Assembly: GCA_963828165.1 (NCBI GenBank)
Contig: CAWHDR010000001.1
Coordinates: forward strand, 864,001-928,000
DNA from: an uncultured Chloroflexia bacterium
Lineage (GTDB): Bacteria; Chloroflexota; Limnocylindria; Limnocylindrales; CSP1-4
DNA: 64,000 bases
Direction: 5' to 3'
The number at the start of each line of letters is the position of its first letter. Position 1 is the stretch's first letter. The notes under the pieces are model-generated. The model made no database searches and was not told the origin of the DNA. It saw only the letters and a program-made list of their open reading frames with translations. Positions 9,916 to 47,143 of the stretch are shown in pieces. The translations under genes were made by a program, and so were the position numbers.

Positions 9916-10812
9916 GTGGGTCCCCTCCTCTTCATCGTCCTGGGCATTGCCGCGCTCGGGGTCGGGGCGATGGTCCTGCGCAGCTTCGGCCCGCGGTTCC
10001 GCGTCGGGCGTCTCCTGGCAGCCACACCATCCGTCAGTGTCGCCGAGGCCCGCGACCTGGCGAGCGGTCCGGCTCGCTATGTGGCTATCCGGGGTCGGAT
10101 CGACGCGGAGGACGAGTTCGAAGACGACGCGCACCGGCCGCTGGTCCTCCGGCGGGCGAGGATCCAGCTCCGCACCGGCTCGGACTGGGTGACGGTCGAC
10201 GAGCACACCACGGCCGTCGCGTTCGAGGTGCGTGAAGGCCTCGACGCGATCGCCATCGATCACGACGCGCTGGATGCCGGGCTGGTCGTCGTCCCGCGCG
10301 AGTCCGTCGGAACCGCGGCGGACGCGCCGGACCGCGTTCCCCCCGGCACGGCGCCCGAAGTCCCGATGCGGCTGGTCGTGGAGCAGGTCTCCTCCGTGGA
10401 GCACGCGGTGGTCCTGGGTGTGCCGGTGGTTGCCGCCGACGACCTGCCCACCCGGATGACCGCCGGGCTCGGCCGGCCGCTGATCCTGACGACCCTGGAG
10501 CCCGCGGAGGCGATGCGCATCCTCGCCGCCGGCGGCCCACGCCGGCCGCTGGCCGCCGCCTTGGCCCTGGGCGTCGGTCTCGTATCGCTCACGATCGGCG
10601 TGGTCTGGGCCGTGCTCGGCGCGATGACTGCCACGGCGCTCGCCGCGTCGCCGGCCGCGAGCGCCGCCGGCGGCGACCCGCGGTCCAGCGGGCAGGGTCC
10701 GGGGCTCGTCGGTGAACCGCTCGCGGCGATCGCCCTGGTCGTGGCGATCGGCGTGGCGGCTGCCGTCGCGACCTTCGGATACGTCCGCCTCACGGGGGGT
10801 CGCCGCTCCTAG
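9916..10812 (+). CDS. hypothetical membrane protein
   Basis: N-terminal TM, soluble middle domain, C-terminal TMs; TATCAT -10 element 7 nt before GTG. Confidence 0.7.
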   Translation: MGPLLFIVLGIAALGVGAMVLRSFGPRFRVGRLLAATPSVSVAEARDLASGPARYVAIRGRIDAEDEFEDDAHRPLVLRRARIQLRTGSDWVTVDEHTTAVAFEVREGLDAIAIDHDALDAGLVVVPRESVGTAADAPDRVPPGTAPEVPMRLVVEQVSSVEHAVVLGVPVVAADDLPTRMTAGLGRPLILTTLEPAEAMRILAAGGPRRPLAAALALGVGLVSLTIGVVWAVLGAMTATALAASPAASAAGGDPRSSGQGPGLVGEPLAAIALVVAIGVAAAVATFGYVRLTGGRRS

Positions 10813-45628: not shown

Positions 45629-45828
45629 CCTGATCGGGAGGATGGGGCCGCTCCGGGGGGCGGGCAATGGTACGGGGGTCCGGTGCGACCCAGCCGACAT
45701 GCCGCATGCTCCCGCCACCCGCTGGGCGGTGCGGTGGACTCCGGTGTGGCGGATGGTCCAACCGGCCGAGCCGGTTACCCCCGTTCGGTCATTGAGCCCG
45801 TGGGCGCGCGCGATGGAGGATGGCCGCC

Positions 45829-46578
45829 ATGGATGTCATCTCCCGATCCCGCCCGCTGACACGGGCGACGCTCGTCCCGATGATGAGCGGCACGGTGCTT
45901 GGCGCCCTGTTCATCGTCGGCGGCCTCGCCCTCGCCTATGTCGCCTTCGCGACACCCTTCCTCGGCCTGGCGCTGCCATCGGGTCGGCCTGACCCCATCC
46001 AGATCGCGTTCGGCATCACCACCTGGGCTGTGGCGCTGGTCGCGCCCGCTGGGTTCGTCCTGGCCGGCGCCAATCGCCTCGCCCGCAATCTCGCCTCCGC
46101 CCGCGGCCGCACACCGCGCCGGTCGGTCGCGCTGAAGGAGCTCGAGAGCCTGCCCGACGACTTCACCGTGGCCAGCGGGCTGACCCTGGCCGACGGACGC
46201 GGCGTGTCCGAGCTGGTGATCGGCCCGTTCGGTGCTGCCGTGATCCGCGAGCTGCCGCCGTCCGCTGTCACGCGGGTCCAGGGCGACAGCTGGCAGGTCC
46301 GTGGGGCGCGAGGGTGGATCTCGCTCGAGAACCCGCTGGAGCGGGCCACGAGGGATGCTGAACGCGTCCGCCACTGGCTGACCGAAGACGACGACTACCT
46401 CGTGAAGGTGTACGCAGCGGTGGTCGGGCCAGACTCGTCGGTCGCGCGAACCTCGGCCTGTGCGGTCCTCACCCCGGACCAGCTGGCTTCCTGGATCACC
46501 GCGCTGCCGGCGCAACGGGGCCTCACCCCGGGGCGCCACAGCCGCGTTCTTGACCTGGTCCGCGCCGCCGCGCCTTGA
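45829..46578 (+). CDS. membrane protein with degenerate NERD-like domain
   Basis: Two TMs, then [23 protein letters not shown]. Confidence 0.6.
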
Positions 46579-46673
46579 CTGGCTGATCCGCGGATCCCGA
46601 CCCGCGTCGCTGCGCGTAGATCGTCGCGCCACTCCCCCCAGCGATGGCGCGAGGCATAGACTTACGGACCGAT

Positions 46674-46751
46674 GGGGGAGTAGCCCAGTTGGTTAGAGGC
46701 GCCGAGCTTATACCTCGGAAGTCGGTGGTTCGAGTCCACCCTCCCCTACCA
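46674..46751 (+). tRNA. tRNA-Ile (anticodon TAT)
   Basis: Acceptor GGGGGAG/CTCCCCT, A73, CCA; anticodon arm CCGAG-CTTATAC-CTCGG; T arm GGTGG-TTCGAGT-CCACC; TAGACT -10 element upstream. Confidence 0.9.
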
Positions 46752-46831
46752 AGGAACCCTCGGACATGCGCGCACGTTCCCCGCCTGGACCGTGTGGGTT
46801 GCGCCCTACCTGGGGCGCTCGGACCGCCGCG

Positions 46832-47143
46832 TCAGTCGCCGTTGAGCAGCTTCCCCGCGATGGATTTCAGGTTGAGCGCGCGCGGCCGGAGGCCAGGTGG
46901 CGGGGCGTCGCCGTCGTGCCCGGGGGCACCGTCGCGACCCTCGACGATGGCGCCGCCGGGTGCCCAGGCTCGGGCCGGCAGGGTCGACGCGAAGTCCCGC
47001 TCATCGTCGGTCATGAAGGCGTCGATCGGCAGGTCGTCCGGATCGAACGGCCGGGCCACCGTGGCGACCGGGCCGGGCGGCCGCGCATAGGCCGGGGCTC
47101 CGTAGAGCTTGGGCAACGCGACGTGTTGCTCATCGATGGACAA
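46832..47143 (-). CDS. hypothetical protein
   Basis: ORF with ALPKLYGAPAYARPP..PFDPDDLP. Confidence 0.6.
   Translation of the reverse strand: MSIDEQHVALPKLYGAPAYARPPGPVATVARPFDPDDLPIDAFMTDDERDFASTLPARAWAPGGAIVEGRDGAPGHDGDAPPPGLRPRALNLKSIAGKLLNGD

Follow-up and report, generated by a model that had tools for sequence, protein, structure and literature searches.

The window analysed here, a 64,000-nt stretch of the genome of an uncultured Chloroflexota bacterium, carries a tRNA-Ile gene with the anticodon UAU, which raises the question of how this organism reads AUA codons, and whether it can do so with a U34 tRNA that does not also read AUG. Almost all bacteria depend for AUA reading on the enzyme TilS, which has been discussed as a bacteria-specific target. 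It generally passes for an essential, nearly universal and evolutionarily stable bacterial enzyme, and was found in 98.18% of genomes (PMC6063277). The natural exceptions named by one source comprise nine species in three clades, including mycoplasmas, Bifidobacterium and Neorickettsia species (PMC3575796).

A tRNA-Ile gene with an encoded UAU anticodon

ARAGORN predicted a tRNA-Ile with anticodon tat, beginning at tRNA position 36, at the coordinates given in Table 1, and the gene scored 61.5 bits against Rfam RF00005 (gathering score 29, E 1.6e-12), matching model positions 1-71 of 71. It is one of only two tRNAs returned by an Rfam scan of the whole window. The cloverleaf drawing is complete, and the sequence-only reading of a full fold with A73, an encoded CCA end, the anticodon TAT and C38 in the anticodon loop was confirmed. 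The TAT anticodon is thus encoded in the genome, within a tRNA of the Ile box. The acceptor stem contains G1.U72, G4:C69 and G5:C68.

That reading had also given the gene a promoter of its own, which was not borne out: a consensus sigma-70 scan of positions 46300-47000 returned 0 promoter-like sites (0.0 expected in shuffles). A terminator scan around the tRNA likewise returned 0 sites. Homologs of the 252-aa open reading frame upstream adjoin the tRNA in 24 of 42 fetched tRNA loci, all of them from the family of this genome (tblastn), and the frame is matched at 92% identity in two records titled Chloroflexota and Chloroflexia. A tblastx comparison of the flanks was dropped in favor of tblastn with this single frame, because multi-frame matches in GC-rich DNA inflate it.

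Table 1. Features at the tRNA-Ile(UAU) locus, in window coordinates.
Feature	Position	Strand	Evidence
tRNA-Ile(UAU) gene, 78 nt including encoded CCA	46674..46751	+	ARAGORN; Rfam RF00005; covariation in relatives; contigs of independent runs
Anticodon TAT (U34 A35 U36)	46709..46711	+	ARAGORN; sequence; cloverleaf drawing
Anticodon loop CTTATAC (C32, U33, A37, unusual C38)	46707..46713	+	sequence; cloverleaf
Discriminator A73 and encoded CCA end	46748..46751	+	sequence; cloverleaf
TAGACT box, candidate -10 element, 11 nt upstream of the tRNA	46658..46663	+	kept in 4/5 aligned close relatives
252-aa open reading frame, conserved neighbor of the tRNA gene in family f1	45820..46578	+	tblastn

The UAU tRNA is conserved in two families of one order

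The distribution of the gene was examined in the family of this genome (f1), its sister family in the same order (f2) and three other families of the same class (f3, f4 and f5, here termed the sister families of the class). A pattern search for the UAU tRNA, which gave 0 matches with the reversed control pattern, identified it in 58/60 f1 genomes and 6/7 f2 genomes, leaving two and one genomes, respectively, without a match, and in none of the f3 (0/66), f4 (0/66) and f5 (0/1) genomes. BLAST with the UAU tRNA failed to match 2 of 40 relatives, with completeness of 69% and 91%. Among 30 loci fetched from relatives, ARAGORN called tRNA-Ile(tat) in 29, the remaining one being a tRNA-Val. The same tRNA is hence present in related genomes, where the sequence-only reading had proposed to look for it.

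The TAT anticodon never varies among the 66 pattern matches, which come from 65 genomes of f1 and f2, with this one among them. Position 38 of these 66 tRNAs is occupied by C (36 tRNAs), T (29) or G (one) and never by A; UAU tRNAs of other Chloroflexota and all but one of the CAU tRNAs listed have A there. Comparison of 21 unique UAU tRNA sequences revealed double compensatory changes in 10 of 22 predicted pairs, including all five anticodon-stem pairs, while the motif CTTATA showed no variation at all.

The base at 46709, for which the sequence-only reading had considered and disfavored a C-to-T read error, was checked on contigs of independent runs. Logan contigs from three public runs (X1, X15 and X16) span the whole tRNA with no difference listed at 46709. 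The X1 contig, from a DNA run, carries two other letters within the tRNA, at unspecified positions, and those from the RNA libraries X15 and X16 carry none; a fourth run, X2, gave no cover, and the interval 46560-46860 is only partly covered by run contigs. The X16 contig (106 nt) consists of Illumina-adapter-like letters followed by 46673-46751, ending three letters beyond the CCA. Such RNA-library contigs over a tRNA are no proof of its transcription. The shares of all runs containing the sequence are small (0.19 or less), so no habitat is named from them.

tilS is missing from its syntenic site

Searches of this genome for TilS yielded best scores of 15.3 bits both with TIGR02432 (cut-off 93.6) and with PF01171 (cut-off 27), and tblastn with three TilS proteins from sister families of the class gave no real match (best E 0.8). 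This genome is 87.7% complete, so that absences in it alone are weak and rest on synteny and on the clade. Across the order, TilS exceeded the curated cut-off in 0 of 41 genomes and in 0 of 68 f1 and f2 genomes, that is, in 0 of 97 distinct genomes. In the sister families of the class, TilS was matched (E <= 1e-5) in 59/66 f3, 59/66 f4 and 1/1 f5 genomes, or 119/133, of which 115 exceed the cut-off, and in a sample of the phylum it exceeded the cut-off in 273 of 301 genomes.

Gene order points to the same absence. The f4 genomes G049 and G107 carry tRNA(CAU), TilS, FtsH and a DnaB_C-like gene in succession, and the f3 genome G165 carries tRNA(CAU), TilS and FtsH. This genome has an identical tRNA-Met(CAU), then a 203-nt gap, then ftsH, whose product is 78% identical to that of G049. 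Profiles, tblastn, the empty syntenic site and the clade all show that a tilS homolog is missing. The sequence-only reading had held that relatives with CAU at this locus and an intact tilS would refute it: relatives with tilS and a tRNA-Ile2(CAU) do exist in other orders of the class, where they represent the ancestral state, and none were found within the order, where all 97 genomes are negative.

Across the class, the anticorrelation between TilS and the UAU tRNA is perfect. In some other Chloroflexota (G230, G273, G324, G382 and G466), UAU-like tRNA genes coexist with TilS, and two more TilS-less lineages with UAU tRNAs, family f27 and genome G409, were identified in the same phylum.

CAU tRNAs and the origin of the UAU tRNA

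This genome encodes two CAU tRNAs, one initiator-like and one elongator-like. The former shows the A1xA72 mismatch and, at the base of the anticodon stem, the three G-C pairs that characterize bacterial initiator tRNAs. Two CAU tRNAs are also found in 51 of 61 f1 genomes, and three in only two of them; at least three occur in 38 of 66 f4 genomes. The extra type of f4 and f3 has the acceptor sequence GGGCCC and 78.9% full-length identity to an E. coli tRNA with anticodon CAT that is annotated by PGAP as tRNA-Ile. No tRNA-Ile2(CAU) of this GGGCCC type is among the f1 and f2 tRNAs listed, with types assigned by sequence and a search pattern that demands A73 and an encoded CCA. In both this E. coli tRNA and the tRNA-Ile2(CAU) of the sister families that have TilS, the pairs are C4:G69 and C5:G68, so the earlier observation that the two acceptor pairs of the UAU tRNA are the reverse of the E. 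coli type holds.

In pairwise comparisons, limited for this genome to tRNAs of 72-79 nt, f1 UAU tRNAs were closest to type-2 tRNA-Met (68-81% identity) and the f2 UAU tRNA to Ile(GAU) (73%), although tRNAs are too short for such identities to decide their origin. An attempt to identify type-2 tRNA-Met through a search of E. coli, with an f4 copy one base off that of this genome as the query, was uninformative: the matches, in 453 of 5426 genomes, were all annotated as tRNA-Phe and lay mostly on plasmids.

AUA codons, isoleucyl-tRNA synthetase and U34-modification genes

AUA is the second rarest codon of this genome (321 of 913,992 codons, or 0.35 per 1000). In alignments of two TilS-less genomes with homologs, 59 AUA codons could be placed, opposite I in 19 cases, L in 12, V in 10 and M in 3; for comparison, ATC faces I in 46% and M in 2% of cases, and ATG faces M in 46%. 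An Ile-like profile is favored over a Met-like one by a log-likelihood ratio of 31.5. AUA therefore still appears to mean isoleucine, on a small sample with crude, GC3-filtered ORF calls and an Ile share of 32% vs 46% for ATC.

The sole IleRS, encoded at 2740221-2743541 of contig C1 of this genome, is eukaryote/archaeal-like (IleRS2), with the IleRS2 structures 8c8w and 8c9d as best PDB matches (E 4e-176) and IleRS1 structures at E 1e-59 to 1e-65. Its C-terminus corresponds to Pfam DUF5915 and the zinc-binding domain is absent. The pocket residues Q961/R964/K965/L969 of P. megaterium IleRS2 align with Q/R/R/L here, the conserved arginine being R1040. In yeast IleRS, this arginine is described as hydrogen-bonding the carbonyl of G34, I34, U34 or pseudouridine-34 and rejecting C34 (PMC11685878). 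The TilS-bearing sisters G043 and G044 also have IleRS2, with Q/R/K/L and N/R/K/L, respectively, and no G34-pocket signature tracking TilS loss emerged from five sequences, four with Q/R/(K or R)/L and G044 with N/R/K/L.

Among five genomes searched for U34-modification genes, MnmA was found in all five, MnmG in none and MnmE over the cut-off in none; the absence of MnmE and MnmG argues against an xm5U-type modification of U34. TmcAL (PF05636) was also missing from all five, which says little because it is missing from 10 of 14 control genomes as well.

Alternative explanations

A UAU anticodon could result from a C read as T in sequencing or assembly, or belong to a tRNA pseudogene. An identical or covarying gene in dozens of independent assemblies, the agreement of three independent runs at 46709 and a full cloverleaf far above the gathering score leave this with virtually no probability, and we consider it refuted by the relatives' loci, the f1 and f2 pattern matches and the run contigs. 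The gene could also be an accessory copy next to an overlooked, divergent TilS and its tRNA-Ile2(CAU), as in Lactobacillus plantarum and L. casei. The incompleteness of this genome and the five Chloroflexota genomes in which UAU-like tRNAs coexist with TilS speak for this; against it, one and the same model finds TilS in most sister-family genomes and in no genome of the order, the gap lies precisely at the syntenic site of tilS, and the GGGCCC-type tRNA has no listed counterpart in f1 or f2. We regard this explanation as close to refuted and highly improbable.

Two further alternatives accept the loss of TilS and differ in what U34 does. In one, which we consider a possibility of limited weight, U34 bears a dedicated modification needed for IleRS recognition or for telling AUA from AUG, such as pseudouridine (as in eukaryotic tRNA-Ile), a 2-thio or another group. 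With yeast IleRS, charging of fully modified, pseudouridine-containing tRNA-Ile is reported to exceed that of an unmodified UAU transcript 40-fold (PMC11685878); a haloarchaeal tRNA-Ile given U34 by mutation is described as being modified and then reading AUG too (PMC3919564), and MnmA is present in all five genomes searched. The lack of MnmG and MnmE speaks against such a group, as do both bacterial cases for which mass spectrometry is described, M. mobile and a B. subtilis suppressor, in which U34 is unmodified; among the genes examined here, none was peculiar to the TilS-less families. In the other, which seems rather unlikely, the tRNA reads both AUA and AUG, and some Ile at Met codons is tolerated, limited by competition from tRNA-Met alone with no special discrimination. 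The absence of TmcAL, a protector of tRNA-Met decoding in some bacteria, would fit, as would the rarity of AUA, which implies that the UAU tRNA is little needed and probably scarce. However, the unmodified U34 of the B. subtilis suppressor is reported to bind AUG weakly and to misread about 1 in 1000 (PMC3919564), ATG columns look normal in the alignments, and retention of the system across at least 18 f1 genera and in f2 argues against a cost.

Discussion

The sequence-only proposal of TilS-independent AUA decoding was upheld by the genomic evidence: no tilS, an empty syntenic site, no positive genome in the order, only initiator- and elongator-like CAU tRNAs, and the anticorrelation across the class. 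The gene at this locus is very probably a functional minor tRNA-Ile of a Chloroflexota order that has lost the lysidine system, with tilS and the CAU-type tRNA-Ile2 gone and AUA read by the encoded UAU tRNA. The order consists of free-living soil and freshwater Chloroflexota.

The ancestor would have had TilS and tRNA-Ile2(CAU), the state still seen in the sister families of the class. In the f1 and f2 lineage, tilS appears to have been deleted from between the elongator tRNA-Met gene and ftsH, and the CAU-type tRNA-Ile2 to have vanished. By analogy with other organisms, R1040 of IleRS2 would accept U34 and reject C34; since this arginine reads N34, U34 alone may make the tRNA a substrate of IleRS and a non-substrate of MetRS. 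In decoding, U34 would pair with the A of AUA, probably without an xm5U-type group, as MnmE and MnmG are absent, and should bind AUG only weakly, resembling in this the unmodified U34 described for Mycoplasma mobile and the B. subtilis suppressor, with tRNA-Met presumably competing for AUG. The scarcity of AUA would make such a system tolerable, and the order-wide pyrimidine at position 38 may, speculatively, adjust codon affinity.

A more specific version of this scheme is offered tentatively, with the odds against it. Discrimination between AUA and AUG may be intrinsic to the tRNA: a copy of elongator tRNA-Met would have gained U34 after the loss of tilS, and an IleRS2 reading N34 alone would have switched its identity in one step. 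Unmodified U34 and a pyrimidine at position 38 (0/66 with A38), rather than a wobble modification or a special ribosome, would then secure accuracy, and the lysidine system would be dispensable whenever IleRS2 and low AUA usage coincide.

The closest described parallel is M. mobile, reported to lack tilS and to encode a tRNA-Ile2(UAU) with unmodified U34, its ribosome discriminating AUA from AUG (Taniguchi et al. 2013, PMC3575796). As in that account, an encoded UAU tRNA here replaces tRNA-Ile2(CAU) in the absence of tilS, and U34 is probably not xm5-modified. The U34 state and ribosomal discrimination of M. mobile are described from experiment, whereas the present system is known from sequence. 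The bacterial IleRS1 of M. mobile is described as carrying Arg865 where the zinc-binding domain otherwise has a conserved Trp (E. coli W905), a combination not found here, where an IleRS2 ends in DUF5915 and lacks that domain. The system thus appears to work like that of M. mobile while belonging to a different subtype. The genomes also differ, M. mobile being described as a fish mycoplasma of 777 kb, and those here spanning 2.2-4.2 Mb (70% G+C in this one), with 1.0-1.4 Mb and about 63% G+C at sampled loci in the sister family of the order.

Bifidobacterium and Neorickettsia species are likewise described as lacking tilS and having a tRNA-Ile(TAT) gene and a eukaryote-type IleRS (PMC3575796, PMC3919564), but they belong to other phyla; here the loss is order-wide, the tRNA body most resembles elongator tRNA-Met and a pyrimidine occupies position 38. 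In the B. subtilis tilS-deletion suppressor tRNA1-Ile(UAU), one substitution, to U34, is reported to let a different tRNA body take over AUA, with U34 unmodified and AUG binding weak (Kohrer et al. 2013, PMC3919564). That suppressor is a laboratory product derived from tRNA-Ile1(GAU), whereas the tRNA described here is natural and fixed, with tRNA-Met(CAU) as its nearest sampled body. Eukaryotic cytoplasmic tRNA-Ile(UAU) offers a further likeness, a UAU-encoded minor tRNA for AUA recognized through an IleRS C-terminal arginine that reads the N34 carbonyl, but its U34 and U36 are described as pseudouridylated and its gene as containing an intron (PMC11685878), which the gene here lacks. L. plantarum and L. 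casei also have a bacterial TAT-anticodon tRNA, but with a coexisting tilS (PMC3575796), whereas here both TilS and tRNA-Ile2(CAU) are gone.

Open-access papers and preprints yielded no report linking Chloroflexi, Chloroflexota or Limnocylindria with tilS loss or a UAU tRNA-Ile, and the order is very probably a new, large lineage with TilS-independent AUA decoding. The loss is fixed order-wide at ordinary genome sizes, in 97 genomes that include a streamlined sister family and, within a single family, at least 18 genera. Where tilS was deleted the scar is clean, and the set of tRNAs has shifted to match. Family f27 and genome G409 would represent at least two further independent losses in the phylum. 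If discrimination does prove intrinsic to the tRNA, no larger natural clade of TilS-less bacteria would have been noted to date. For annotation, the UAU tRNA of these genomes is the true tRNA-Ile2, and no CAU tRNA in them should be called Ile2. The order provides natural material for the old question of how AUA, but not AUG, can be read by a U34 tRNA, and suggests testable permissive conditions for the loss of TilS: IleRS2, the absence of MnmEG and rare AUA.

A conserved tRNA-Ile(UAU) gene

ARAGORN called three tRNAs in the window, including a tRNA-Ile with a TAT anticodon for which the Rfam tRNA model, covered in full, gave 61.5 bits (gathering score, 29). Every structural feature named by the sequence-only reading (cloverleaf, TAT, A73, encoded CCA, G4:C69, G5:C68 and C38) is present, and the observation of a tRNA-Ile(UAU) gene is confirmed. 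The promoter of its own that the same reading had assigned to the gene was not recovered, as a sigma-70 consensus scan of 46300-47000 returned none. Another ARAGORN call, a 100-nt tRNA-Pro(cgg), had no Rfam tRNA counterpart at gathering score in a whole-window scan and probably represents a spurious hit in sequence of high G+C, as may several other over-long calls in this genome.

Coordinates of the features discussed, in window positions unless a genome, contig or locus is named
Feature	Location	Strand	Basis
tRNA-Ile(UAU)	46674-46751	+	ARAGORN, Rfam
Anticodon TAT	46709-46711	+	sequence, cloverleaf
Anticodon loop CTTATAC (C32, U33, A37, C38)		+	sequence, cloverleaf
A73 and encoded CCA	3' end of 46674-46751	+	sequence, cloverleaf
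G1.U72, G4:C69, G5:C68	acceptor of tRNA-Ile(UAU)	+	sequence, cloverleaf
TAGACT box	46658-46663	+	kept in 4/5 aligned close relatives
tRNA-Pro(cgg) call	10143-10242	+	ARAGORN
tRNA-SeC(tca)	G000, C1:1715771-1715869		ARAGORN
IleRS	G000, C1:2740221-2743541
UAU tRNA 3' half, two copies	G059, C1:192875-192919 and C2:2831-2875
TilS loci	L144:1061-2065, L145:585-1661, L146:482-1888
UAU tRNA, other lineages	G309:C150:24740-24910 (L153)
UAU tRNA, other lineages	G333:C14 (L154)
UAU tRNA, other lineages	G409:C43 (L155)

The genome under study (G000; 3.31 Mb in six contigs, 70% G+C, 87.7% complete) belongs to an order comprising a roughly 3-Mb high-GC family and a 1.0-1.4 Mb family (sampled loci ~63% G+C). 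The window corresponds to C1:864001-928000 of G000. ARAGORN found no tmRNA gene in this 87.7%-complete assembly, and a tRNA-SeC(tca) outside the window.

BLAST with the 78-nt tRNA gave matches in 38 of 40 relatives, and ARAGORN identified tRNA-Ile(tat) at 29 of 30 fetched loci, the remaining one being called as tRNA-Val; a neighbouring ORF is 92% identical in two close relatives. Across 21 unique sequences (a 22nd was left out, its sole difference being one additional 5' base in the ARAGORN call) CTTATA is invariant, and two-sided changes that preserve pairing occur at 10 of 22 predicted pairs, including all five of the anticodon stem; the useful counts are those for the three arms other than the D arm, which RNAalifold drew incorrectly. 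Logan contigs from one DNA run (X1) and two RNA libraries (X15 and X16) span the gene, with no deviating letters in the X15 and X16 contigs and no difference listed at position 46709 in any of the three; no contig of run X2 was placed on the tRNA region. The relatives' loci, the compensatory changes around an invariant CTTATA and the contigs of three runs rule out a sequencing error, bearing out the earlier argument that the T at 46709 is genuine. A 106-nt X16 contig, consisting of adapter-like sequence, 46673-46751 and three letters beyond CCA, fits a tRNA-sized molecule, although recovery from an RNA library is no proof of transcription.

Two forms of the UAU tRNA, only ~76% identical to each other, occur inside one genus (loci L005-L009 versus L023-L034 and L044-L055; window region 45820-46751): that of G000, with C38 and 78 nt, and another with T38 and 77 nt. 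Both adjoin the same 252-aa ORF in opposite orientation, the tRNA being co-directional with it in G000, G002, G005, G010 and G014, whereas the remaining genomes have the two genes convergent; this arrangement suggests that the tRNA gene was locally replaced or inverted. In G059, a genome of the same family, the 3' half of the UAU tRNA is present in two identical copies on separate contigs.

Absence of TilS across the order

The best scores in G000 for the TilS model TIGR02432 and the PP-loop model PF01171 were both 15.3 bits, against cut-offs of 93.6 and 27. TilS did not exceed its cut-off in any of 41 genomes (25 from the genus of G000, itself among them, and 16 from f2, the sister family in the order); weak f2 matches of 20-24 bits, in 368-546-aa frames, extended over no more than the initial third of the model, the part containing the nucleotide-binding motif. 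An even sample of 201 class genomes gave TilS in 0/60 genomes of f1 (the family of G000) and 0/7 of f2, compared with 59/66, 59/66 and 1/1 in f3, f4 and f5, the sister families of the same class. The search for tilS in related genomes returned 0/97 distinct genomes of the order, both surveys combined, while the sister families carry it. Phylum-wide, 273 of 301 genomes with completeness of 85% or higher had TilS over the cut-off. The f3 and f4 tallies include unpublished genomes (G102, G122, G126, G131, G139, G145, G156, G182, G189), as does the phylum tally (G264, G374, G391, G458); the conclusions are independent of them.

The genomic context retains a clean deletion scar. In the f4 genomes G049 and G107 a PP-loop TilS gene is immediately preceded by a CAU tRNA and followed by FtsH and a DnaB_C-like gene; in the f3 genome G165 a CAU tRNA precedes a longer TilS with a TilS_C domain, then FtsH. 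The CAU tRNA of G000, which matches the G107 copy exactly and the G049 copy at all but one base, is succeeded by a 203-nt gap, FtsH (78% identity with its G049 counterpart), an M20 peptidase and the DnaB_C-like gene. Three sister TilS proteins gave no real tblastn match in the whole of G000: matches at E 1e-7 and 5e-10 proved to be N-terminal extensions of ORF calls running over the tRNA, and the best otherwise had E 0.8. With tilS missing at the syntenic site and no tblastn match elsewhere, assembly gaps cannot explain its absence. The f4 TilS has only the PP-loop domain, mostly in open frames of ~330-400 aa, and is shorter than the f3 TilS (~470-490 aa, with TilS_C in G165); tRNA-Met(CAU) lies directly upstream of tilS in both families.

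A matching change in the tRNA set

A pattern combining the UAU anticodon loop, T arm, A73 and CCA matched 58/60 f1 and 6/7 f2 genomes and none in the TilS-bearing families (f3, 0/66; f4, 0/66; f5, 0/1); the reversed-pattern control gave 0 matches in the class sample. Whole-genome ARAGORN analysis of G000 found one Ile(gat), inside an rRNA-operon-like Ile-Ala pair, one Ile(tat) and just two CAT tRNAs. One of the latter combines an A1xA72 mismatch with an anticodon stem that has three G-C pairs at its base, both features of bacterial initiator tRNAs; the other resembles an elongator. The tRNAs adjoining tilS (type 2 in f4, type 5 in f3) survive in f1 as its sole non-initiator CAU tRNA, which identifies them as elongator tRNA-Met.

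The corresponding CAT pattern had two matches in 51 of 61 f1 genomes (G000 included), one in 8 and three in 2, and at least three in 38/66 f4 genomes. It requires A73 and encoded CCA, so the counts for f2 (one match per genome, of initiator type) and f3 (matches in only 7/66 genomes) are not informative. A third CAU type, found in f4 and in three f3 genomes, has a GGGCCC acceptor containing the pairs C4:G69 and C5:G68. This tRNA aligns over its full length (100%), at 78.9% identity, with an E. coli gene that has a CAT anticodon and the PGAP annotation tRNA-Ile; matches occur in 5425/5426 E. coli genomes (median 2 places each), and it is read from this similarity as tRNA-Ile2(CAU). This type is absent among all f1 and f2 CAT matches, every one of which was included; 147 f4 matches were left out of the comparison. 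Genome G121 has two initiator-type CAU tRNA copies 4 kb apart.

Proposed charging by IleRS2 and reading of AUA

The single IleRS of G000 (1106 aa) lies outside the window. Its best PDB matches are 8c8w, 8c9d (E 4e-176) and 1ile, followed by eukaryotic cytoplasmic IleRS (~1e-105 to 1e-118) and lastly IleRS1 (~1e-54 to 1e-65); Pfam assigns the C-terminus to DUF5915 and the protein is similar to MupA and MupB, and by these similarities it is classed as IleRS2. In P. megaterium IleRS2, Q961, R964, K965 and L969 are described as forming a pocket for tRNA-Ile G34 (PMC13752280), and a HMMER alignment to 8c9d places Q1037, R1040, R1041 and L1045 at these positions in G000. The equivalent yeast arginine is described as hydrogen bonding to the carbonyl of G34, I34, U34 or pseudouridine-34, with C34 not bound, and the same arginine as in use in bacterial IleRS2 (PMC11685878). 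Since this arginine accepts U34 in yeast, U34 would plausibly suffice for charging of tRNA-Ile(UAU). IleRS2 with this pocket is shared by the TilS-less G025 and G309 and the TilS-bearing G043 and G044 (G409 was confirmed only as IleRS2 type), which points to a permissive background and not a specific adaptation, in agreement with the eukaryote-type IleRS reported for tilS-less Bifidobacterium and Neorickettsia (PMC3575796).

In five genomes with or without TilS (G000, G025, G043, G044 and G309) MnmA was present throughout, MnmG was found in none, and MnmE did not exceed its cut-off, with GTPase-domain matches only. An xm5U-type U34 is therefore unlikely, and wobble uridines of the class probably lack xm5 modifications generally. 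By analogy with M. mobile and a B. subtilis tilS-deletion suppressor, in which an unmodified U34 is reported to give strong binding of AUA and weak binding of AUG on the cognate ribosome (PMC3575796, PMC3919564), U34 here would be unmodified and show the same preference. The 66 UAU matches of the order comprise 36 with C at position 38, 29 with T, 1 with G and 0 with A; A38 is found in all but one CAU tRNA among the matches listed and in the UAU tRNAs of other Chloroflexota, making non-A at this position specific to the order. Anticodon-loop context is reported to alter reading by unmodified U34 (PMC3919564), and one may speculate that position 38 does so here.

Crude gene calls in G000 (ORFs of at least 150 codons, GC3 >0.80, GC3 > GC1 > GC2) gave 2324 ORFs and 913,992 codons, among which ATA is the second rarest after TTA, with 321 occurrences in 265 ORFs (0.35 per 1000; 0.78% of Ile codons), a count that 5' ORF extensions may inflate. 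The frequency per 1000 is 1.0 in ~0.79 Mb of the f2 genome G025 and 0.52 in 0.8 Mb of the TilS-bearing f4 genome G043. Among top blastp pairs with an identity of 35% or more, 59 aligned ATA codons from the two TilS-less genomes stood opposite I 19, L 12, V 10, M, F, A, P and S 3 each, and two others. For comparison, ATC stood opposite I in 46%, V in 20%, L in 15% and M in 2%, and ATG opposite M in 46%; the log-likelihood ratio of 31.5 favours an Ile-like profile for ATA. The ATA codons of the TilS-bearing genome behave alike (I 5, L 6, V 4, M 1 of 20).

Origin and other lineages

Among the sampled tRNAs, those nearest to the f1 UAU tRNAs are type-2 elongator tRNA-Met (68-81% identity), with which they have G1.U72, G4:C69, G5:C68 and the T arm in common, and not the GGGCCC-type tRNA-Ile2; for the f2 UAU tRNA several tRNAs are equally near. 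Outside the order, the phylum sample contains eight TilS-less genomes (G259, G309, G333, G409, G254, G321, G427 and G442), the first three constituting family f27 (TilS 0/3). The UAU tRNAs of G309, G333 and G409 have an acceptor stem like the GGGCCC type, as expected from a simple C34-to-U change of tRNA-Ile2, and f27 and G409 look, from these genes, like independent TilS losses by that route. Five TilS-bearing Chloroflexota genomes also have tRNA-like UAU matches (G230, G273, G324, G382 and G466; loci L128, L134 and L135), which could be accessory or mobile-element tRNAs. About five further UAU matches in the phylum sample are chance-like, the reversed control giving ~20 matches in 301 genomes.

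Relation to known systems

Nine TilS-less bacterial species in three clades are described as having tRNA-Ile(UAU) (PMC3575796), TAT tRNA genes are reported from 19 species (PMC4013482), and TilS is described as stable and present in 98.18% of genomes (PMC6063277). The M. mobile subtype has an adapted IleRS1; the IleRS of G000 is not of that kind, so this case lies outside that subtype, and its combination of missing tilS and eukaryote-type IleRS is the same as that reported for Bifidobacterium and Neorickettsia (PMC3575796). Our literature search returned nothing on tilS loss or UAU tRNA-Ile in Chloroflexi. Other taxa may be included in Table S1 of PMC3575796.

The proposal of TilS-independent AUA decoding is supported by the absence of tilS, the lack of any tRNA-Ile2(CAU) seen, the conserved UAU tRNA and the Ile-like profile of ATA. 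The kind of system is already known; new are the lineage, Chloroflexota, its breadth across an order (at least 18 sampled f1 genera plus f2), the ordinary genome sizes and clean deletion scar, and the Met-like tRNA body with a pyrimidine at position 38. The case is of solid interest for research on decoding and tRNA modification.
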